Part shown: in pieces, positions 2,139 through 64,000 of the stretch
Layout: each line of letters opens with the position of its first letter
How positions within the stretch are numbered: position 1 is the first letter of the stretch
Origin: Sedimenticola hydrogenitrophicus
GTDB lineage: Bacteria > Pseudomonadota > Gammaproteobacteria > Chromatiales > Chromatiaceae
Assembly (NCBI RefSeq): GCF_025175675.1
Contig: NZ_JANIOA010000011.1
Span: 51,864-115,863, forward strand
Length of the DNA: 64,000 nucleotides
Reading direction: 5' to 3'
Notes under the pieces: model-generated
The model's database searches: none
Seen by the model: the letters and a program-made list of their open reading frames with translations, nothing else
What the model was told of the DNA's origin: nothing
Position numbers and translations under genes: made by a program

Positions 2139-6791
<4,653 letters not shown>

Positions 6792-7026
6792 CTCATCGGG
6801 GCAGAATACGGCAACAACTGCTCTCTACCCGTTGTAAACATGGACGTAAGACCCGAAAAAACACTCTTCGAGGTTCGTCCAAAATGGCCGAAGAATGTCC
6901 ATCACAAGGAATTCCGGCCGGACAGAACCCTGCAGGATAATGGAAAACTTTATTCCAGGCCAGCAATTTACTGAACAGCTTTAATTTCCCTAGATGGAGT
7001 GGGTATCCGCTACGGATTTCCGTCCT

Positions 7027-8832
7027 TTATTTACCCATGGCCGCCTGGACGGAGGCAAAGGTACGGGGCCAGACACCGCTATTGCGCAGCGCGGGCGGCA
7101 GGGTCTCCCGGCCCTTGAGGGCGCTGGATCGGTCCCCATAGACGCCATGGATCACCGAGTACCATGGTTGGCCCGACCGGGTCGTCTTGAAGTAGGCAAC
7201 GTCCCCGCGTAGCCGGTGTTGCTCGATAAACCGCCTGGCGGCCGGCTCATCCCTGACACCCACCAGCTGCAGTGTGTAGGCAACGGGACTCCGGGTCAAT
7301 ATCCAACGCTCGTCCCGAAGGCGCTTCCCGGCGGTGGGGGTCGCCGAATCCGCGCCATCAGTCGCGGCGGCGGGCCTTGCCGCGAGCCCTGGCGACTCGG
7401 CAGCGGCATCCTCTTCGACCACGGGCGTGCCGCCCGCCCCGGGAGCGTCCTCGCCGGCCGGCAGATTATCGGGTGGTGACGCCTCACCGGCAGGTGACAC
7501 ATCGTTAACCGCGCTGGCCACTTCCCCGGCGGCCGGCGCTGTGCCGGGTTTGGGTGTGGCCGGTTCATCCGTCACGCCCGGTTGCGACGCCATCGCCTCC
7601 GCGGCAGTCGGCGGGATGACCGCCGGCCCTGGCGCCTGCTCTGTTTCCGTTGCTGTTTCCGGTTCCGGTTCCGGTTCCGGTTCCGTTGCTGTTTCCGCTT
7701 CTGGTTCCGGCCCCGCTAACAGCTGCGGCGGCTGGTCCGTCCGGGGAGCCGTCCCCAGGGGCGGCGCTTGCTCCAGCCGCTCCCCTATCCCGGGGCCTTC
7801 CGTCTCGCGCGCCGTTCCCGACCCGGGTTGCGGAAGTTGCAGGGGATGCAACCTCCCATCTGTGAAGCTCGTAACGCCTTCCACGGCCGGATCGGCTTCC
7901 GTCTGATCGAACAGCCGATTGATCTCATCCTGAAAAACCAGTGTCAGCAGCAGCAGTACCAGCAGCAAGGGCGCGCCCATCAGCACCGACAGCGGCAGGT
8001 CTGACACCACCGCTCGAATACCGAACCGTTGCTTTGCGGTGGATTGCGCAACCACCGCCTCGGCAGGCTTGGAGGCACCGGCAAAAACGCCCTGCAGTCG
8101 CTCTTCCAGCACGCCCGGCACTCCCGCGGCGTCCCTGATAATCCGCTCAATTCGTCCGGGCGCCAGTTTCAGGCCCGCCGGCTTACCCTCGGTATCGAGC
8201 AGAAACCCGATAAATGCCTGCGCCTGCGCCGCATCAAACAGCGGCATCTCAAGAGACTGGACACTCTGGAGATTCATCGCCTGCAGTTGCGGCGTCTGGA
8301 ACTGCGCATTGATCTCGGGCGTGGCAAACAGCACCACCCGAATCAGCGCCCGGCTGCCGGGACGACGCTCAAAAAGCCGGAACAAGGCGATCAGTGTCGC
8401 TACCGGGAGCAGCTGGGCGTCATCGACCACTATCACCGGTAACCGTCCGGCGGCATGCAGCATCTCGAAGCGCTTGAGCAGCTCCTCGATATTCATCGCC
8501 GCGGGACCGGTCAGCCCGAAACGCCGATAGAGGAGTGAGAAGAACTGGTCGGGCTGCAGCATGTGGTCCGCCGTCAGACAGCAAAGCGCCCAATCCTCCC
8601 GGGATAAATCGCGGAATTGTTGCAGCAGGGTACTCTTACCGGAACCGGTGGCCCCTTTGATTAACAGTATTTTCTCACTGTTATCCGTCAGATGCCGCAG
8701 CAGATCCAGGCGTTGCCTGAGCTCCGGAGTTGAAAAAAACGCCTCAGATCTCCCCGGGGTGGGCGTCCTGTCATGCCGGTGAGTTGATTCGGCGCTCGCT
8801 ACCGCGTCAGCCGGCCGCTGATCCATACTCAT
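7027..8832 (-). CDS. AAA+ ATPase (ExeA/GspA-like P-loop GATGSGKST) with a Pro/Ala/Glu-rich linker and a C-terminal SPOR domain; PA5037/DamX-like protein of the aroKB operon
   Basis: Walker A motif, low-complexity EPEPEP/TATE linker and SPOR-like C-terminus ([11 protein letters not shown]...WYSVIHGVY). Its stop overlaps the aroB start by ATGA. Synteny matches Pseudomonas pilMNOPQ-aroK-aroB-PA5037-gltBD. Confidence 0.75.
7630..7725. repeat. tandem GGTTCC/GTTGCTGTTTCC microsatellite encoding the (EP)n/(ET) linker of the SPOR protein
   Basis: Visible tandem ggttccggttccggttccggttcc and duplicated gttgctgtttccg blocks. Confidence 0.6.
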
Positions 8833-9980: not shown

Positions 9981-10066
9981 AAAGAACCACGGATGGACAC
10001 AGATACACGCGGAGAGGGGGTCAGCATTCTGAATCTGTGTTTATCTGTGTGAATCCGTGGTTCTAC
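9981..10066. repeat. palindromic MITE/REP-like element, family B (GAACCACGGAT..ACACAGATAAACAC // revcomp)
   Basis: Near-perfect 85-bp hairpin. Related copies at 35232-35262 and 35538-35622. Confidence 0.7.
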
Positions 10067-10228
10067 AGTGCGGTTGGAGTGAAGTACGCACCCCAACGAG
10101 CCGAGCCTTGCGCATAGGGCGGGCCGTACCCGCCGACGGCGCCCATGGGGCGCCCTATGGCCGGTTTCCGGGGTATCGAAACTGCGCGTAAACCAGAAAT
10201 AAGCCATATTTAGAATTGCCGCCGGGAA

Positions 10229-11122: not shown

Positions 11123-13324
11123 TCAGCGGGCTGACAGGGTCTCCTTGAGGATCTTCGGGGTGACGAAGATCAACAGTTCCCGGTTCTCATCCGTACGCAG
11201 TTCCTGTTTGAACATGAAGCCCACATAGGGGAGATCGCCGAAGAATGGGACACGTTCATTTCTGCGCGTCTCCGAACGCTCGAATACACCGCCCAGGACC
11301 ACGGTTTCGCCGTTCTCGACCAGCACGGAGGTCTCAACCTCCCGCGTATCCACTGGCGGCACGCCCAAGACCGAACGGGAGAAGTCGGGACTGTCCTTGG
11401 AGATATTGAGATCCATGATAATCCGATCATCCGGGGTGATATGGGGGGTCACCTCAAGCTTCAGCACCGCCTCCTTGAACGAGACCGTGGTCGCGCCACT
11501 GGAACTGGCCTCCTGATAGGGGATCTCGACACCCTGCTTGATCACCGCGGTACTCTGATCCGATGTGACCACCCGGGGGCTGGAAACGACCTCGCCCTTG
11601 CCCTCCTGCTGCATGGCGGAGAGCTCCAGCTGCAGCAGATAGGAACCGAGCTTCCCGGCGATAAAGTTTATTGCCCCGCCCCTGGATGAACTCAGGGTCT
11701 GTGGGAGATTGACCAGCAGCCCCTCCATACCGGAACCGGCGGGCGACTCCAGGGAGCCCTCATGCAAGCCGGCCGTGTTACCGATGTAGCCCGCCTGGGT
11801 GCCATTGATATCCAGGAAGTTACCGTCCTGCTTGAGGTGGGTGCTGAGGCCGAAACGCACGCCGATATCCCTGGCGAAATCATCATTGGCGATCACCACA
11901 CGGGACTCGATCAGCACCTGCCGGACGGCCACATCGAGCCGCGTGATCAGCCGCCGGATATCGTCAAGTTTGGCGGCGGTATCGCGTACCAGCAGGGTAT
12001 TGGTCCTTTCATCGAAAGTGACATTGCCACGCTCAGGCGTCAGCAGCTGATTGCCTTCCGCCTTCAACAGTTTCTGTATATCGGTCGCCTTGGCATAGTT
12101 CAGCTGTATGTATTCCGAAAACAGCGGCGCCAACTCCTCGATCTGGCGCTGCGACTCCAGCTCCAGCTTTTCGCGCGCGGCTATCTCTTCGGTTGGCGCA
12201 ATCAGCAGGACGTTGCCATTCTGGCGCATGGAGAGACCGCGCGTTTTCATGATGATGCTTAGCGCCTGATCCCACGGAACATTCTTCAACCGCAGGGTGA
12301 TATTGCCGCTAACCGTATCCGAGGTGACCAGATTCAGACCGGTGAAATCCGCCAGCAGCTGGAGTACGGCGCGCACTTCGATATCCTGGAAATTGAGAGA
12401 CAACCGTTCACCGGTGAACGTCTCCTTGCGCCGCTGCATCTCCTCTCTTTCCTCCTTGGTCAGGGCGCGAAATTCGACAGTAAAGAGATCATTGGCCTGG
12501 TAGGCGAGGTGTTCGTACTCACCCATTGCGGTGATCTCGATATGCACATTCTCGCCCTGGCTGGTGACCTCGAACTGTTTTACCGGGGTGGAGAAATCGC
12601 CCACATCAAACTTGCGCATCAACCGCTCCGGCAGCGAGGTATTGAGGATATCCAGGACGATCCGGCCTGACTCCTCGCGCATATCCACGGCGGCTGCCGG
12701 ATTGCCCAGGGTCAGGATCACCTGCCCCTCGCCGCCATCACCCCGCCGGAAATCCACATTGCGCAGACTGTCCACCGGCTCCCCGGCCGTGTCCGGGGAA
12801 GCTGGCACGGCGGGTGCCGCCGCGGTGGCTGTTCTGCCGGAGGAGGCCACCCGGGCACCACCCTTGATGGTGATTTCCAGCTGGTTTCCGTTCACCACGA
12901 TATCGTGGCCTGTCGCTTCAACCAGATTGACCACCACCCGGGTGCGGTCTCCCGCCTCAATAGCCGTGACGCTACGGGTATTGCCAATCCCGATTGCCTG
13001 GGTTTTGCTGCTCAGCCCGTTGGACATGCCAAAAAAATCCAGCGCAATGCGTGCGGGATTATCGGTGGTGAACATCTGTGGCCGTTCAATCGGTTTATCC
13101 GCACGCAGCGTAATGACCACATCGTCGCCAGGCAACGCGGAGAAAGTCAGTTCTTTCAGCACATTGTCCGCCGCGAAAACGGGTGTCAGCGAACACAGGA
13201 ACAGGAGAACAACTGCCAGGAACAGCCGCCGGGAGGAGTGGTGCAGGGGTGCACCGTTTACGGACCCAAGGATGGAGGAGGGGTACAGGGATGTACCGTT
13301 TACGAACCTGAGGATGGAATTCAT
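11123..13324 (-). CDS. pilQ: type IV pilus secretin PilQ; likely start MNS at 13324; carries an in-frame 84-bp repeat insertion after codon 3
   Basis: N0/AMIN and secretin domains. The C-terminus resembles the secretin family (VLGGVF..PFFGDLPYVGFMF). Downstream of pilMNOP. The N-terminus MNS..RRLFLAVVLLF fits a secretin N-terminus once the 28-aa insert is removed (recalled from memory, not compared). Confidence 0.9.
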   Translation of the reverse strand: MNSILRFVNGTSLYPSSILGSVNGAPLHHSSRRLFLAVVLLFLCSLTPVFAADNVLKELTFSALPGDDVVITLRADKPIERPQMFTTDNPARIALDFFGMSNGLSSKTQAIGIGNTRSVTAIEAGDRTRVVVNLVEATGHDIVVNGNQLEITIKGGARVASSGRTATAAAPAVPASPDTAGEPVDSLRNVDFRRGDGGEGQVILTLGNPAAAVDMREESGRIVLDILNTSLPERLMRKFDVGDFSTPVKQFEVTSQGENVHIEITAMGEYEHLAYQANDLFTVEFRALTKEEREEMQRRKETFTGERLSLNFQDIEVRAVLQLLADFTGLNLVTSDTVSGNITLRLKNVPWDQALSIIMKTRGLSMRQNGNVLLIAPTEEIAAREKLELESQRQIEELAPLFSEYIQLNYAKATDIQKLLKAEGNQLLTPERGNVTFDERTNTLLVRDTAAKLDDIRRLITRLDVAVRQVLIESRVVIANDDFARDIGVRFGLSTHLKQDGNFLDINGTQAGYIGNTAGLHEGSLESPAGSGMEGLLVNLPQTLSSSRGGAINFIAGKLGSYLLQLELSAMQQEGKGEVVSSPRVVTSDQSTAVIKQGVEIPYQEASSSGATTVSFKEAVLKLEVTPHITPDDRIIMDLNISKDSPDFSRSVLGVPPVDTREVETSVLVENGETVVLGGVFERSETRRNERVPFFGDLPYVGFMFKQELRTDENRELLIFVTPKILKETLSAR
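13232..13315. repeat. family C 42-bp repeat, two tandem units, lying in frame inside the pilQ 5' end
   Basis: ggaggagtggtgcaggggtgcaccgtttacggacccaaggatgg + aggaggggtacagggatgtaccgtttacgaacctgaggatgg. Same family as 35454-35497 and 40010-40118. Confidence 0.8.
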
Positions 13325-35224: not shown

Positions 35225-35790
35225 CCTGGAGAACCACGGATTCACACAGATAAACACGCAGGTGAGGTGTCGGAGTCAAACCAGGCTCGGTCGGGTGGCC
35301 TGATCGCACGGCGGGCGGCTGGTTTGACTCCGACACCTGGGGGTTCCGGCAAGGTGGGCACAAACTACGTGCCCACCCTACGCGGCTGGCCTCATCACAA
35401 GCAATCGTATCGTAGGGTGGATAAGCCGGTAGGCGCATCCACCGTAGCACTGGTGAGGAGTGGTACAGGGATGTACCGTTTACGGACCTGAGGATGGCTT
35501 GCGCCTCTGGCTTATCCACCCTACAAAAAACACTGGGGAACCACGGATTCACACAGATAAACACGGATTCAGAATTCTGATCTCCTATCTGTGTAAATCC
35601 GTGTCCATCCGTGGTTCCTTATTAACCGGGTTGGGATAATCAGGCTATTGAAAGCCATATTTAGCTCGGTAGGGTGGGCACGCTTTTTGTGCCCACACGG
35701 AAGGTGCGGCACCGGGCAAAAAGGTGGGCACAGACTACGTGCCCACCCTAAGCGTCTGCGGATCACCAGGCGGTCAGCTCAGTCAGACTT
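35225..35790. repeat. repeat-dense intergenic island: family B half-copy (35232-35262), a GGTGTCGGAGTCAAACC palindrome, family A hairpin (35336-35395), family C unit bracketed by its own 16-bp IR (35411-35526), family B full copy (35538-35622), family A double hairpin (35667-35755)
   Basis: Read directly from the sequence. Each block has copies elsewhere in the window. Confidence 0.75.
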
Positions 35791-39877: not shown

Positions 39878-40009
39878 CGCTGGGAATGGCCTGTCGCTCG
39901 ATTGGTGGCGACCCCTGCCCCCCCGCATGCCCTGTACAAACCGATGAAGCGGGGCTGGAATCAGCACAGGTCTTGTGGGGTTAATTTATCACAGAAAAAG
40001 AGGGGCCGT

Positions 40010-40250
40010 GAGGAGTGGTACAGGGACGTACCGTTTACGGACCTAAGGAGGGAGGAGTGGTGCAGGGATGTACCGTTTACGGAGCCGAGGATGCCATGAA
40101 CCGTTTACGGATCTAAGGATTGAATAAACGCGAACAAGGTTATTGGGGATCCGGTTGACCTGGGTCGGGTGGGCACGCTTTTTGTGCCCACGCGGAAGGT
40201 ACGGTACGTGGCAAAAGGTGGCCGCAGACTACCTGCCCACCCTACGCAAC
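40010..40250. repeat. family C 42-bp units (2.5 tandem copies, 40010-40118) followed by a family A element (40160-40250)
   Basis: gaggagtggtacagggacgtaccgtttacggacctaaggaggg|aggagtggtgcagggatgtaccgtttacggagccgaggatgcc|atgaaccgtttacgga; then gggtgggcacgctttttgtgcccac. Confidence 0.75.
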
Positions 40251-53895: not shown

Positions 53896-54669
53896 ATGAT
53901 TGATCGCATCGACAAACTGATTCCGCATCAGCTTCAGGAACATGGACATATGTCCATAGTTGAATTGGCGAACAGAGTGAACCCGACCAAAACGCCTTGT
54001 GCCCAGCGTGTATGCCGGCTTGAGAAGGCCGGCATTATTCGCGGCTACCGCGCCGACCTCGACTCGCAACAGCTGGGGGCGGGGCATGTGCTGGTGGTGC
54101 AGGTGACGCTGGACAAGACCAGCGAGGACGCGCTGGAACGCTTTAACGAGGCGATACGGCGCATTCCGGAAGTGCAGAGCGGCTACATGGTGGCGGGGAA
54201 TTTTGACTATTTACTAAAGGTCAGGACCCGCGATATCGCCCACTATCGCAGCGTACTGGGTCATGAAATCGGTCAGCTGCCCCATGTCCACCAGACCCAC
54301 TCCTACGTGGCGATGGTGGTGGTGAAGGACGAAGTGACCGTGCCCATAGAGGTGAAGGGGATTACCTGGCGCGGAACAAGGATTTACCGAGCATTTGGTA
54401 ATGTTCCTCAAAACAGCCGGCAAGGCCCAACGCTCCCGCTGATTGATTATGCAAAACCGATAGTGAACTGTTTTTTGAACTCTTCGATCTCATGCAGGAA
54501 ATCGTGGCCGGGATGTTGCGGCAGTGTATCCAGACGCTCATCCACGTCCACCTGTAGTTCCCACGGTTCGACATGCTGGTTGATAAACAGTAGTTCGGTA
54601 TCGGGGAATACCTGCGTTACACCCTCGGTGATGTCATGGATCGTGAGGTTGCGGGCCACCAGGTCATAG
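53896..54669 (+). CDS. lrp: Lrp/AsnC-family transcriptional regulator. The Lrp fold ends near 54366. The ORF then reads on about 100 codons because the expected TGA is TGG here, and it overlaps the convergent epimerase gene.
   Basis: An HTH_AsnC N-terminus (IDRIDKLIPHQLQEHGHMSIVELANRV) and a RAM domain. The degraded duplicate fragment at 57791-57920 carries TGA at the homologous position. Confidence 0.8.
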   Translation: MIDRIDKLIPHQLQEHGHMSIVELANRVNPTKTPCAQRVCRLEKAGIIRGYRADLDSQQLGAGHVLVVQVTLDKTSEDALERFNEAIRRIPEVQSGYMVAGNFDYLLKVRTRDIAHYRSVLGHEIGQLPHVHQTHSYVAMVVVKDEVTVPIEVKGITWRGTRIYRAFGNVPQNSRQGPTLPLIDYAKPIVNCFLNSSISCRKSWPGCCGSVSRRSSTSTCSSHGSTCWLINSSSVSGNTCVTPSVMSWIVRLRATRS

Positions 54670-57573: not shown

Positions 57574-57606
57574 TAATCATGTGGTCAGAGTCATTGATTT
57601 TGCAAT

Positions 57607-57769
57607 GTACCACTGCCCGCCCCGAGTGCCCGCTGCATCAGCACCGTGTCGACCCACCGGCCAAGCTTGAAGCCAACGGCCTCGAGCGTGCCCACGCTAC
57701 GGAAACCGAGCCGCGCGTGCAGGGCGATGGAACCGGCATTGCCGCTGTCCCCGATCACCGCCACCATCT
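57607..57769 (-). pseudogene. duplicated 3'-terminal fragment (about 163 bp, about 95% identical) of the GNAT acetyltransferase gene at 60816-61400
   Basis: Direct alignment of 57607-57769 with 60856-61018 shows about 8 mismatches. Confidence 0.85.
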
Positions 57770-57790
57770 AAGGTCAGACTCCATGAGTTT

Positions 57791-57920
57791 GCCCACTATC
57801 GTAGTGTGCAGGGTCATGAAATCAGTCAGTTGCCCCATGTTCACCAGACACACACCTATATGGCAAGGGAGGTGGTGAGACGAAGTGACCGTGCCCATTG
57901 AGGTGCCGGGAATTACCTGA
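57791..57920 (+). pseudogene. degraded duplicate of the lrp 3' end (about 80% identical to 54238-54368, with a 2-nt deletion and TGA stop)
   Basis: Alignment gcccactatcg..gtcatgaaatc..ccccatgt..gaagtgaccgtgccca..attacctg. Confidence 0.8.
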
Positions 57921-58067
57921 CGAGACGGCCATCCTCGCCAGCTGGCGTTATCAATAATGACGAGGAACTTGTAGCTAAACAAAAAATAATGGGAGGGGAG
58001 TGTTCGTGCTATTCAATGGGATAGGCGTATTGTCGCTCAGTGAATGAATCAGGGATGACTTGCCGTT

Positions 58068-59171: not shown

Positions 59172-60523
59172 TTGGCGCCAACTGGTAGCTTCTCCTGAAG
59201 ACCGGGGAACGCCGCGAAGACCATCTCCAGCAGACGCTGAGGTGACCGGGCCAACGCATCGGTGGTGGGGATTTCGAGTTCGGTTTCATACTTGTCGATG
59301 GCCGCGCTGATCTCGGCATCGCTCATATACTCATGGTTGATCGTGAGCCCGATGACCCGTGTATCGGCGAAGGTCTGAATCAAGTTGATCTCGCTGGCCG
59401 GCGACGGCATGGCCATCTGGTTGAAGTCACAGCGGGCCACACGTCCCGGTGCATGCTGCAACACCACCGCATCGGGGCAACTGCCGCGCAGAATGAACGA
59501 TGTGGTCGAGAACGCCGGATGACTCAGCGCGCCTTGCCCCTCGATGATAATGACATCGGGCTGCTCTGCCTCGAACGCTTCGACGATGGTGGCTTCCAGT
59601 TCGCCGGCACAGAACTGCGACGGCACTGCATCCATCGCGATGCCGTAACGGGCGCCCTGGATCAGACCGGTTTGCCCCGTGCCGACCAGCACCGCCTTTA
59701 AACCGACATCCTTGAGGGCACGGGCGAGAACGGTGGCCGTAGTGCGCTTGCCAATGGCGCAGTCGGTGCCCAGCACGGCGATACGCGGGCAGGTTACCTC
59801 GTTGATACGGCCGCTGAACATCCGCAGATCCTTCTTCGGGCGAGGCTTGCGAACGTCAAGAATACTGACGTTGTTGGCTATGCGGGCCGCCGTGAACTCC
59901 GGATCATCGTTCAAGAACTCATGCAGACCGTTCACGATATTCATGCCGAGGCCGATGGCACTGAGCACGAGCTCACGCTCGTACACGGATAACATACCAC
60001 TGGCGGGCGCCATACCAAAGATGAAGTAATCCGGCACACAGCCCGCCTGCTTGAGTGAAGCGGTCAGATCGTGACAAATCGGGATGCCGTTTGGCTTATC
60101 GTCGAGCACCGTGCCGGTATCGAACCCCGCCTTCTCGCTGTCGATGACCGAGAGAATCTGATACTTTTCCGAGTGCCGGACCAGCCCGTTCGCGGTCTTT
60201 CCATCAATCTCGCCGAAGTTTGCCTCGCAATAGACAATCGCGGTGGCAGCCGGTTTACGTACAGCACCGTCGCTATCAATGAGGCCAAGCTTTACACGTA
60301 TCGAGGATGGAGATGGGAGAGTTTCGGTATAAGCGGCGAGCGGTGAAGCGGGGATGAGAAGTGGCGCAACGGCAACCGGAGGGCCCTGCGGAGAATACGG
60401 GCGAGCCCGCTGCGGACCGGAATAAACTATGGACATAAGGGTTCCTTGAGCTGGACGGGGCTCAGAGGGCGCAATGTAGTGATTGCCGGACTGATATACC
60501 CGGTTGTCAAGAAGAGTCCCCAC
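59168..60523 (-). CDS. DUF1611-family protein (Rossmann-like N-terminus plus a P-loop-like C-terminal domain) with a Pro-rich N-terminal extension
   Basis: VYCEANFGEIDGKTANGLVR and VLGTDCAIGKRTTA motifs as recalled for DUF1611. Its stop overlaps the racemase-fold gene. Confidence 0.55.
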   Translation of the reverse strand: MGTLLDNRVYQSGNHYIAPSEPRPAQGTLMSIVYSGPQRARPYSPQGPPVAVAPLLIPASPLAAYTETLPSPSSIRVKLGLIDSDGAVRKPAATAIVYCEANFGEIDGKTANGLVRHSEKYQILSVIDSEKAGFDTGTVLDDKPNGIPICHDLTASLKQAGCVPDYFIFGMAPASGMLSVYERELVLSAIGLGMNIVNGLHEFLNDDPEFTAARIANNVSILDVRKPRPKKDLRMFSGRINEVTCPRIAVLGTDCAIGKRTTATVLARALKDVGLKAVLVGTGQTGLIQGARYGIAMDAVPSQFCAGELEATIVEAFEAEQPDVIIIEGQGALSHPAFSTTSFILRGSCPDAVVLQHAPGRVARCDFNQMAMPSPASEINLIQTFADTRVIGLTINHEYMSDAEISAAIDKYETELEIPTTDALARSPQRLLEMVFAAFPGLQEKLPVGAK

Positions 60524-60815
60524 TAAGCGGTGGGGTTAAGCGACCCTCAGGTTAACACGGATCTTCCGAAGAGTTGGGAAATACTTGAGGTTTCCGACCA
60601 AAGGTGGTCACAGTTACTCATCAGCGGTAGCCATGCAGCGTCCAATTGTATTGCTGTACCTCGCCTCCCGGAATGACAAGACCAGCGAACGATGGGGTCA
60701 GACTCGATGAAAGTTAGGTTCTGGTGGTCTTTGCGGGGACAGGCGCTTAGTTGTCCCCGCGCACATCATATTCCTCATTGCCTTCGCTGCACTTACTGTT
60801 CTGCATACAGCACGA

Positions 60816-61400
60816 TCACACCCCGGGAACCGCACCACTCATCCTGTTCTGCAAGGTACCACTGCCCGCCCCCAGTGCCCGCTGCATCATGACGGTGTCG
60901 ACCCACCGGCCAAGCTTGAAGCCAACGGCCTCGAGCGTGCCCACGCTACGGAAACCGAGCCGCGCGTGCAGGGCAATGGAACCGGTATTACCGCTGTCCC
61001 CGATCACCGCCACCATCTGGCGCCAGGGGCCGGTTTCGCAACGGGCGATCAGAGCGGCAAGCAGGGCCATCCCGATACCCCGACCCTGCATCCCGTCCGC
61101 CACGTAGACCGAATCTTCGATTGTATTACGATAGGCGGGACGGGGCCGATAGGTCGTCGCATAGCAGTAGCCGACGACCCCGCCGTCCAGTTCCGCAACC
61201 AGGTAGGGGAGACCGAGGGCAAGTACGTTTTCCCGCCGAAACAGCAACTCGTCCGCCGTGGGGGGAATCTCCTCGAAGGTCGCCAGGCCGTGCAATACCT
61301 CTTGCTTATAGATCTGCTTGATTGCGGGGATGTCCGCGTTCGTTGCATCCCGGACGATGACTCCGGAATTCAGCGTTGAGTTAACCTGCCACATCGGCAC
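60816..61400 (-). CDS. GNAT-family N-acetyltransferase (phosphinothricin/methionine-sulfoximine acetyltransferase-like)
   Basis: Acetyl-CoA binding motif QGRGIGMALL and PAT-like length (194 aa). Confidence 0.8.
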   Translation of the reverse strand: MPMWQVNSTLNSGVIVRDATNADIPAIKQIYKQEVLHGLATFEEIPPTADELLFRRENVLALGLPYLVAELDGGVVGYCYATTYRPRPAYRNTIEDSVYVADGMQGRGIGMALLAALIARCETGPWRQMVAVIGDSGNTGSIALHARLGFRSVGTLEAVGFKLGRWVDTVMMQRALGAGSGTLQNRMSGAVPGV

Positions 61401-61473
61401 ACTACTGCAATGAACTTAAGGGCGTTAGCTGCACAAATTATGGAACTTGGTTAAAAGTGCCTTATTGCCTCGC

Positions 61474-62187
61474 TTATTCCCGTAGATTAGCGACAAACCG
61501 ATGATCTCCGGAGTGCTTTCGCATTCGGTACAAGGTCGCAGGCCGCCCCCGCTCCGTACGCTGCTGTCCTGTATCGATCAACAAATCTGCTTGCTCTATC
61601 CGGCGCCGGAATGATTTCTTTTGTAGGGGTTTGCCGAGCAATACTTCATGGACATGCTGCAACTCTGGCAAGGTAAATTTGTCCGGAAGCGTATAGGCCG
61701 GGACGATAGAGTAAAGCGCCTTCTGCCGAAGGCGCTCTACCCCAATCCGGATAAGTTCCTGATGATCGAAGGCCAAACTGATTCTATCCAGTCCCGCAAT
61801 ATCAAACCATTGCGCATCCTGGACCGTTGAAATACCCGCTTCGCAGACTTGGTAGCCGATAAGCGCGGTGTAGCAAACCGTGACGGACCAACCCCGTTTA
61901 TCCCGTTTGCTGTTACCCATGGTCGCCAACTGGTCAATATAGGGAGGAGCGACACCGGTTTTTTCTTTCACTTTCCGAATCACAGTTTCTTCCAGATTCT
62001 CGTCGGCCTGCATGTCGACAAAGCCGCCGGGAAGGCACCATTTACCCCGGTCCGGATGATTGGCGCGCTCAACAAGAAGCACTTTCAAGGCGCCTTCATG
62101 GAATGTGAAAAGCACTGCATCCACCGTGACCAGCGGGCTATCGTGGTCTTTTGGATTGTATGCCTCCAAAAAGGCTTTCTCACTCAT
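61474..62187 (-). CDS. Nudix-domain protein with a C-terminal winged-helix; NrtR-like regulator of NAD metabolism
   Basis: Degenerate Nudix box (GGFVDMQADENLEETVIRKVKEKTG) plus a basic C-terminal domain. An NAD-kinase-like gene lies divergently downstream. Confidence 0.6.
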   Translation of the reverse strand: MSEKAFLEAYNPKDHDSPLVTVDAVLFTFHEGALKVLLVERANHPDRGKWCLPGGFVDMQADENLEETVIRKVKEKTGVAPPYIDQLATMGNSKRDKRGWSVTVCYTALIGYQVCEAGISTVQDAQWFDIAGLDRISLAFDHQELIRIGVERLRQKALYSIVPAYTLPDKFTLPELQHVHEVLLGKPLQKKSFRRRIEQADLLIDTGQQRTERGRPATLYRMRKHSGDHRFVANLRE

Positions 62188-62351
62188 TCATGGCCTCACA
62201 GTCTGTCGATTTAATCCTAGATTACCCTCGCATTGCGACTGTGCGCAACGAATTTGTGTCTTTTTGACAAAAACCTTGACATATAGTGTCTTATAGTCAC
62301 TATAATGCAAGTGACAGTTAGTCACTAACAATGAAATCAAGGAGAGCAGCC

Positions 62352-63374
62352 ATGTTAGGTATAAAATTTTACAAAGCCGATTCATCCACGTTTGTCATCA
62401 AGAGTTCCGATGGAAGGATACGCCGAAAGGGCAAGGGGCTGAGTTTCTTCTATAGCCCGGCCACCACATCGATCGCCTCGATTCCCGTCAACGTACAGGA
62501 GGCACCGTTCATATTTGGACTGCAGACCGCAGACTTTCAGGAAGTTCGGGTTCAGGGACAGATAAGCTACCGCATCGTCGATCCGGAACGCATAGCCGAT
62601 GTGATGAACTTTAATCTCAACCGCAAAGGGTAAAATTACACATCCGAGGATCCATTAAAGCTCAACGACCGGGTGGTGCGGGCCGTGCAAACCGTCATCC
62701 AGAGTGAGGTGGAAGGGGTTTCGTTGCGGGAGTCACTGCAACTTAGTAAGCCACTCGTGGAAATCATCAAAACTCAGCTGGGCGACCAGACCGCGATCGG
62801 CTCCCTGGGTATTGAAATAGTGGATGCCTCCATATCCGCCATCAAGCCTTCTCCGGAGACCATTAAGGCGCTGGAGGCGGAAACCCGTGAATCGATATTG
62901 AAAGAGGCGGATGACGCCATCTACCTGAGGCGCAAGGCCGCAGTCGAGCAAGAGAGAACCATCAAGGAGGCGGAACTGGAAACGGAACTCTCCATTCAGC
63001 GGAAAGAGCAGGAGATCGAAGAGTCGCGTATAACCAATGAGCGGTCGGTGCTACACGGCGAAGCCGAGACAGAGCAAGAACGGATACGGGCTCAGATTGA
63101 CGCCGAGGAGAAGCGCAAGCAGTTGGTAATTTTAAACGCCGAGAACAGCGGGCAGAAAGCGGATGCGGAAGCCTATGCCATCGAGGCCAGGATGCAAGCA
63201 TTCAAAACGCTTCCGGTTGAAAATCTCAAGGCGATGGCGCTGGCCAATATGAACCCGGAACAGCTGATGGCGATGGCGTTTGATTCCCTGGCGCAAAACG
63301 CAGGAAAAATCGGTGAGTTGAACATCAGTCCCGATTTGTTCGGCAAGCTGATGAAGAGGTCGGTATCAAAATGA
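62352..63374 (+). pseudogene. SPFH/band-7 (flotillin-like) gene interrupted by a single in-frame TAA (62631-62633)
   Basis: Track ORFs 62331..62633 and 62673..63374 are in the same frame. The translation is continuous across the stop (..NLNRKG*NYTSEDPLKLNDRVVRAVQTV..). A strong SD (aaggaga) lies before the ATG at 62352. The C-terminus is an EA-rich coiled coil. Confidence 0.6.
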
Positions 63375-63388
63375 GCAATAAAAATGCT

Positions 63389-64000
63389 ATGCGAAAAAGG
63401 AACTAGACGCGCTACATTCTGGTCACCCGCAAGACCCGGCTTCAGGAGCTGGTTGAACGCTTCAATACCTGGTCACAGGCGCAGTTTTATCTGGAACACA
63501 ATCAGGTCGATGCGCAAGATTATCTGGATGAGCATGACCTGTACCAGCAGCGATTGTTGGAAGCGGAGCGGGTCCTGAAGGGGAGAGGACGATTTCAGCT
63601 ACTGGAACGCACTTTTTTGCCCAGCTATCAGTTTGGTCCCACTGATATCGTGGTGGTCATTGGCCAGGATGGACTGGTGGCCAACACGCTCAAGTATCTT
63701 AATGGCCAACCGGTCATTGGCATAAATCCGGATCCCGGTCGGTGGGACGGCAAGCTGCTGCCTTTTCAGATTGGTGATTTGGATGAGGTTATCGGGGACA
63801 CCGAAGACAATTCGGTCGGGCTGGAGTCGGTTACCTTCGCTGAGGCTCAAACCAACGATGGTCAACGGATGTTGGCCATCAACGACATCTTCATCGGCCC
63901 GAGAAGTCACACCTCGGCCAGATACAAACTCTCCTGGCGGGGTAAAAGCGAGTTTCAGTCTTCGTCGGGCATCATCGTATCGACCGGCTTCGGCTCCACC
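63389..64000 (+). pseudogene. NAD-kinase-family (ATP-NAD kinase-like) gene, 3' end beyond the window; ATG at 63389 is followed by an in-frame TAG (63404-63406) after 5 codons
   Basis: Own translation MRKRN*TRYILVTRKTRLQELVERF...GINPDPGRWDGKLLPF...NDIFIGPRSHTSARY...SSGIIVSTGFGST. The GxNxG and NDG...SAxGGS-type motifs are those of NAD kinase. Confidence 0.5.

Follow-up and report, generated by a model that had tools for sequence, protein, structure and literature searches.

The question raised by the 3' end of a 64,000-nucleotide (nt) stretch of the genome of Sedimenticola hydrogenitrophicus (contig NZ_JANIOA010000011.1, positions 51,864 to 115,863 of the forward strand; this whole stretch is referred to as the window) is why two consecutive genes are each interrupted by a single in-frame stop codon. 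The type strain of the species, SB48 (KCTC 25568 / VKM B-3680), is a cultured isolate from a terrestrial mud volcano. The genes are nrtX, coding for an SPFH/Band 7 protein, and nrtY, coding for an NAD-kinase-like protein, and the stops, an ochre codon (TAA) at 62631-62633 and an amber codon (TAG) at 63404-63406, both on the plus strand, were found where the preliminary description of this DNA had placed them. By its sequence, the locus corresponds to a divergon already described, nrtR<#>nrtX-nrtY. Rodionov et al. (2008, PMC2330246) predicted this NAD-related, NrtR-regulated system of unknown function in Proteus mirabilis, Hahella chejuensis, Streptomyces, Kineococcus and Frankia. The stops are probably two genuine and recent nonsense mutations (CAA>TAA in nrtX and CAG>TAG in nrtY) that together inactivate the NrtR-controlled nrtX-nrtY operon, an ordinary loss of gene function with no sign of recoding. 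Among the causes proposed in the preliminary description, recent pseudogenization is the one favored, on the grounds that each stop derives from a Gln codon by one C>T change, that purifying selection is otherwise seen in both genes and that NrtR boxes are present in the common promoter region.

The nrtX gene (62352-63374, plus strand) comprises 340 codons followed by a terminal TGA at 63372-63374. It begins with the ATG at 62352, and a Shine-Dalgarno sequence (AAGGAG, 62339-62344) lies 7 nt 5' of this start. The preliminary description had reported a strong Shine-Dalgarno sequence and 95 codons before the TAA; the former was confirmed, while the number of sense codons was corrected to 93, the stop being codon 94. 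It falls inside the Band_7 match obtained in Pfam with the conceptual read-through product (residues 14-199, E=3.2e-16), and in place of a whole SPFH domain on one polypeptide it leaves fragments of 93 amino acids (aa) and of at most 229-233 aa. The nrtY gene (63371-64000, plus strand) is represented by its 5' 210 codons and leaves the window at the 3' end. Its ATG at 63371 shares the sequence ATGA with the terminal stop of nrtX, and this is the likely native start since a start was called there in the closest relative available (Logan contig SRR16297628_96060, hereafter L001), which has ACA at 63389; L001 can thus use only the ATGA-overlap start for nrtY. Counted from this ATG the TAG is codon 12. 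The preliminary description had begun the kinase-like gene at the ATG at 63389, with five codons before the TAG and more than 190 after it; the stop is indeed codon 6 from that position, with 198 open codons between it and the window end, but the start itself probably lies further upstream. The TAG is located in the variable N-terminal tail of NrtY, two codons 5' of the conserved core RYILVTRKTRLQ, and tblastn alignments of NrtY to the 80 species-representative loci used throughout this work start mostly at residues 9-14. Compared with the 308-aa forms, nrtY of the Sedimenticola lineage carries six additional N-terminal codons (window 63371-63406 versus 7020-7040 of the outgroup contig L082 described below), an extension common to L001.

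Comparison with orthologues, as proposed in the preliminary description, settled the ancestral state of both codons. L001 aligned to window positions 60949-64000 without gaps over 3052 bases at 93.5% identity, and contains intact nrtX (340 aa) and nrtY (314 aa) genes with CAA and CAG, respectively, at the stop sites. At the protein level the window and L001 shared 95.6% aa identity for nrtX, again ungapped, and 96.7% over 210 aa for nrtY (P0121/L001). The outgroup L082, a 4.09-Mb circular metagenome contig with about 80% aa identity, also has Gln at both sites, and because of this the changes were placed on the branch leading to the window; each stop is thus a derived state, reached by a single C>T transition. 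At nrtX codon 94, a column in which Gln occurs in 8 of the 12 aligned homologues, CGG was found in a third relative (L084, 88% nt identity). Homology extended across each stop far above chance, with E values for NrtX down to 2e-169 over 99-100% of its length and 97% identity of NrtY to a 314-aa protein. The best 120 NrtX homologues listed were uninterrupted, 335-347 aa long (mostly 340) and covered 99-100% of the query; full-length NrtY homologues among the matches listed, of 306-314 aa, were likewise uninterrupted. Both genes of the window therefore have the features of nonsense pseudogenes, namely an internal stop in an open reading frame otherwise collinear with and as long as intact orthologues, and an ancestral sense codon at the stop site in close relatives and the outgroup. 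Searches with degenerate codons covering the TAA region returned no match in genome_contigs, nor did an exact or Y-degenerate 41-mer in metagenome_contigs, giving no second sample of either the mutant or the wild-type allele of this species.

Across the species-representative loci, nrtX and nrtY were adjacent in all 80. In 69 of them nrtR was detected in the flanking sequence, in most cases directly upstream and in divergent orientation. Damage to nrtX was seen in only two other loci of this set, one by a nonsense change and one by a frameshift, with nrtY uninterrupted in both. The first is on plasmid pALWED1.1 of Acinetobacter lwoffii (L055, 6187-6189), where an independent CAG>TAG change occurred at nrtX codon 63. 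It resembles the case of the window in that a single Gln codon of an otherwise 99%-conserved nrtX was changed from CAG to TAG, but differs in that nrtX alone is damaged and nrtY intact, whereas both cistrons are damaged in the window. The pALWED1.1 cassette shares about 99% protein identity with copies from Proteus, and a near-identical cassette was also present in Psychrobacter sanguinis and in a metagenome-assembled genome (MAG) labeled 'Gelidibacter'; sequence identity at this level suggests recent horizontal transfer or contamination. The second is in a Thiothrix MAG (L081, approximately 5930-6010), in which nrtX is apparently frameshifted near codon 22, with the N-terminus MFGIQYYKADASTYAIKTNKGK and the remainder in different frames; either a genuine lesion or faulty assembly of the MAG may account for it.

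The age of the inactivation was approached through the substitutions separating the window from L001. Divergence was 5.3% for nrtX and 4.3% for nrtY, the least in the aligned block, against 7.3% for nrtR and 10.8% for the neighboring GNAT gene. Ratios of synonymous to non-synonymous changes on the window branch, with the stops included, were 13:6 for nrtX and 8:3 for nrtY, and those on the sister branch were 11:4 and 5:3, respectively. Nearly all of the divergence thus appears to have built up under purifying selection, and since the window-branch ratios look like those of genes under such selection, the inactivation is, by this estimate, recent. The only hint of relaxed constraint came from the R235H replacement in NrtX, encoded 3' of the TAA at a site with 97% conservation, where neither L001 nor any of 199 homologues has His.

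The substitutions from L001 to the window also showed a strong bias towards AT (C>T 52, G>A 39, T>C 19, A>G 24; in total 115 GC>AT versus 52 AT>GC), and the G+C content of the window was 1-5 points under that of L001 in every gene of the 60949-64000 block. This spectrum was considered as a mark of nrtX and nrtY decay and rejected, the bias being equal in nrtR and the GNAT gene; it reflects a lineage-wide compositional shift, common to all four genes.

The regulator nrtR and the operator region are intact in the window. In the preliminary description the two interrupted genes were said to lie downstream of an NrtR-like regulator; nrtR (61474-62187) is in fact on the minus strand, divergent from nrtX, and the two share an intergenic region of 164 bp. 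NrtR operators are 21-bp palindromes with a GT-N7-AC core (PMC2330246), and one canonical box of this form together with two variant palindromes was found at the box positions of relatives. Box 1 (TTTGTGTCTTTTTGACAAAAA, 62253-62273) is canonical, with the GT-N7-AC core, is identical in L001 and is located 99 nt 5' of the nrtX start, as in the Proteus, Providencia, Ketobacter and Gilvimarinus loci. Box 2 (ATAGTGTCTTATAGTCACTAT, 62283-62303) has a variant right half-site, GTCAC instead of GACAC, and occupies the same position as in relatives, for example ATAGTGTCTTTTAGACACTAT in Ketobacter. Box 3 (CAAGTGACAGTTAGTCACTAA, 62308-62328), a palindrome AGTGAC-N5-GTCACT, is again at the same position (about 34 nt 5' of the start) as in the Proteus and Providencia loci. 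Boxes 2 and 3 are inferred to function as NrtR operators. In the Sedimenticola lineage (window 62283-62328 and L001) the half-site of boxes 2 and 3 is AGTGAC/GTCACT versus AGTGTC/GACACT in enterobacterial and other loci, and the symmetrical change in box 3 hints at co-evolution of operator and regulator. A putative nrtX promoter on the plus strand (62276-62306) was recognized on reading the region, with TTGACA at 62276-62281, a 19-nt spacer that includes box 2 and TATAAT at 62301-62306; a consensus promoter scan that required a spacer of 16-18 nt did not call it. Taken together, the three boxes overlap this putative promoter.

In its intact state the operon would be repressed by NrtR from the three boxes overlapping the promoter and released when ADP-ribose rises, by analogy with other NrtR proteins, whose DNA binding is relieved by ADP-ribose (PMC2330246). 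The TAA at codon 94 would halve the SPFH domain so that neither fragment should fold, leaving NrtX non-functional. Termination about 740 nt 5' of nrtY would further abolish translational coupling at the ATGA overlap and expose untranslated mRNA to polarity. Poorly expressed as a result, nrtY would be free to acquire the TAG at codon 12 as a second block, although the proposal does not fix the order of the two mutations.

Some observations weigh against inactivation by two recent nonsense mutations. Both T bases are those of the assembly consensus alone, the 3' third of nrtY lies beyond the window end, and the scan for split genes described below is blind to early stops such as that of nrtY in other genes. 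Relaxed selection has, R235H aside, left no clear mark: frameshifts are absent and the ratio of non-synonymous to synonymous substitution rates is not raised. Two nonsense changes within so brief a neutral period also somewhat exceed what simple neutral decay would give, so that the loss may have been selected or the stops may be artefacts.

The first alternative accepts the loss of nrtX but supposes that a little NrtY is still produced by translation restarting after the TAG, at ACG 63407, ATT 63416 or CTG 63419, with only the non-conserved tail lost. The place of the TAG just 5' of the conserved core, after residues that vary in sequence and length among homologues, would allow this, as would an AAGGAA motif at 63397-63402, 4 nt 5' of ACG 63407. 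However, the first in-frame ATG, GTG or TTG after the TAG is TTG 63554 (codon 62), well inside the conserved region, so that any rescue of this kind would be weak. Initiation at ACG, ATT and CTG reaches about 1% or less of the efficiency of ATG in E. coli, and with the TAA in nrtX the coupling of nrtY translation is lost as well. The protein collection yielded no NrtY from this genome, a query beginning after TTG 63554 having returned only relatives of at most 74% identity; this absence may reflect annotation as a pseudogene. The non-canonical kinase start raised in the preliminary description thus keeps the possibility of a weak rescue, given a stop in a variable tail, but lacks any ATG, GTG or TTG in frame before codon 62, and continued production of NrtY in this manner is unlikely.

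It is also quite unlikely that both T bases are consensus or assembly errors and that the real genome reads CAA and CAG. Each is a single C>T difference from the nearest relative, a class that DNA damage or base-calling artefacts can produce, and the remainder of both genes is under normal purifying selection, as expected of intact genes. Errors dense enough to create two stops in 775 bases should, though, break many of the approximately 48 other genes in the 64 kb. A scan of the window in all six frames sought stops with 60 or more open codons both before and after them and a coding-like composition of these two stretches in a common frame. Four cases were returned, of which three proved by Pfam to be pairs of complete, separate genes and the fourth was nrtX, no other gene being found split. 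Intact open reading frames of up to 1550 aa argue further against a noisy assembly, both changes lie within one operon, which is not a random placement, and the unique R235H 3' of the TAA agrees with nrtX being truly inactive. A base-calling artefact at a methylation motif was considered separately and dropped, neither site being in CCWGG or GATC.

A bolder pair of proposals concerns both stops together: the NrtR-controlled SPFH-kinase module may have been lost by selection instead of neutral decay, or may be retained through rescue by a suppressor. In the former version expression of nrtXY could be costly or toxic upon de-repression by ADP-ribose, favoring independent null alleles; nrtX lesions occur in the window, in pALWED1.1 and in a Thiothrix MAG among about 83 loci examined. 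In the latter, a Gln-inserting ochre suppressor could restore the original residue at UAA and UAG. The pair is judged highly improbable; if one of them were true, SB48 would offer a natural handle on the unknown function of nrtXY.

Decoding of the stops, by programmed read-through or by a Gln-inserting suppressor tRNA (supE/supB-like) acting at UAA and UAG, was given very little credence. Both stops replace Gln codons, the remainder of both genes looks selected, and an in-frame stop with conserved coding sequence on both sides is what known read-through and suppression systems present. With the classical amber and ochre suppressors that arose from tRNA-Gln, exactly this residue would return at both sites. 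UAA is the tightest stop codon. Unlike those of known systems, however, the stops of the window are unconserved, lack a stimulatory structure or known context and are of two types in two genes. Specifically, a stop is present at neither site in L001, L082, L084, the 80 species-representative loci or the homologues among the matches listed; folding of the 80 nt 3' of each stop does not stand out from that of shuffled sequences (z = +1.17 and -0.25); and Rfam gave no match at E<=1 in 60500-64000. No tRNA gene was found within the window. Ordinary termination at both codons is also evident nearby, with TAA ending a PAPS reductase gene and TAG a MarC gene, each with a full-length Pfam match and the next gene within 10 nt. 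These results count against the programmed read-through suggested in the preliminary description. Stop usage in rough gene calls of the window was TGA 23, TAG 13 and TAA 12, and a reassigned code with TAA and TAG as sense codons was rejected because both terminate conserved genes here. Two further candidates were dropped: A-to-I editing of the TadA type, which acts in a TACG context that neither stop has, and pyrrolysine, the ancestral residue being Gln.

That the pieces of nrtX are genuinely separate small genes forming a split SPFH protein, as the two coding sequences (93 aa and 229 aa) of the RefSeq annotation and a GTG 14 codons after the TAA might suggest, is hardly credible given that the break lies inside the Band_7 match, that such a split gene occurs in none of the 80 species-representative loci and none of the best 120 homologues listed, and that the sister lineage has one uninterrupted nrtX with Gln at the site. 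The refuting observation named in the preliminary description, orthologues in which the upstream segments are small genes in their own right, was accordingly not made in any of the 80 loci.

With two nonsense mutations as the preferred explanation, the locus can be compared with the divergon as first described. It agrees with the published nrtR<#>nrtX-nrtY arrangement (PMC2330246) in gene order and orientation and in the palindromic boxes of the common intergenic region, and differs in having a nonsense codon in each structural gene, variant half-sites in boxes 2 and 3 and, as in L001, the six-codon N-terminal extension of NrtY. The regulator itself is an intact protein of 237 aa that matches WP_260293044.1 exactly and combines the two domains of the NrtR family, an N-terminal Nudix-like domain (Pfam NUDIX, residues 20-145, E=7.3e-14) and a C-terminal NrtR winged-helix domain (NrtR_WHD, residues 165-222, E=1.5e-23). 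Against the NCBIfam NtrR equivalog model it scored 251 bits, under the 400-bit cut-off, and by these profile scores it classes as a member of the NrtR family, not as an NCBIfam NtrR equivalog.

For NrtX, several NCBI records name homologues 'NrtR-regulated NrtX', and a sequence search gave no relative of solved structure. NrtY homologues are recorded as 'sugar kinase' or 'NAD kinase'. Remote homology of NrtY to NAD kinases was detected, with NCBIfam models giving 33 bits versus a 260-bit cut-off (E=3.5e-8) and matches in the PDB to NADK2 (E=2e-5) and Thermotoga PpnK (E=1.3e-3); there was no Pfam NAD_kinase match. NrtY is thus similar to the NadK/PpnK family over the catalytic region, but with scores far under the cut-offs and GQDG instead of the canonical GGDG it belongs to a separate family. 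We take GQDG to be a variant of GGDG, and NrtY also contains a glycine-rich stretch, STGFGSTGW. The PADLOC defence models gave no match for NrtX or NrtY, and no second copy of nrtX or nrtY was found within the 64-kb window.

These results bear first on annotation. RefSeq holds the broken nrtX as two coding sequences, WP_335342535.1 (93 aa, 'SPFH domain-containing protein') and WP_335342536.1 (229 aa, 'hypothetical protein', start GTG 62685), although both come from a single broken gene, for which annotation as a pseudogene would be correct. Moreover, the 229-aa fragment serves as representative of a 90% cluster that contains the intact 340-aa protein of L001, which was thereby concealed from the homologue search. 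If both stops are real, S. hydrogenitrophicus would be without a functional nrtX-nrtY module, a finding of little importance beyond annotation. Nevertheless nrtXY is a widespread and conserved operon of unknown function, tied to NAD/ADP-ribose sensing since 2008, and a cultured natural double null beside an intact regulator could be a convenient control strain for studies of its function.

The nrtR-nrtX-nrtY cassette (61300-64000) has a G+C content of 48-54% compared with 60% for the window. Its flanks differ between lineages, with the GNAT gene adjoining nrtR in the window and L001 and a Y1 transposase and other genes in L082, and because of these different flanks the three-gene module looks like a mobile, self-contained unit. 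Elsewhere in the window, the 3' end of the GNAT gene (ArsN1/phosphinothricin acetyltransferase-like) recurs as a 172-bp copy at 57598-57769 with 94.8% identity to 60847-61018. This copy sits in a 494-bp gap between LysE and alanine-racemase-like genes, and its product would be a C-terminal fragment terminated by a stop codon; the 153 bp directly after it (57770-57922) share 81% identity with 54217-54371. The segment 57598-57922 resembles a mosaic of duplicated pieces that remained after a rearrangement. In addition, an interspersed repeat family of about 89 bp was present in both orientations with 85-95% identity at 9981-10070, 13228-13316, 35455-35497, 35531-35620, 35665-35753, 40005-40093 and 40160-40247. 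The copies lie mostly in gaps between rough gene calls, that at 13228-13316 overlapping one call, and the family may represent a repetitive extragenic palindromic (REP)-like or miniature inverted-repeat transposable element (MITE)-like element.

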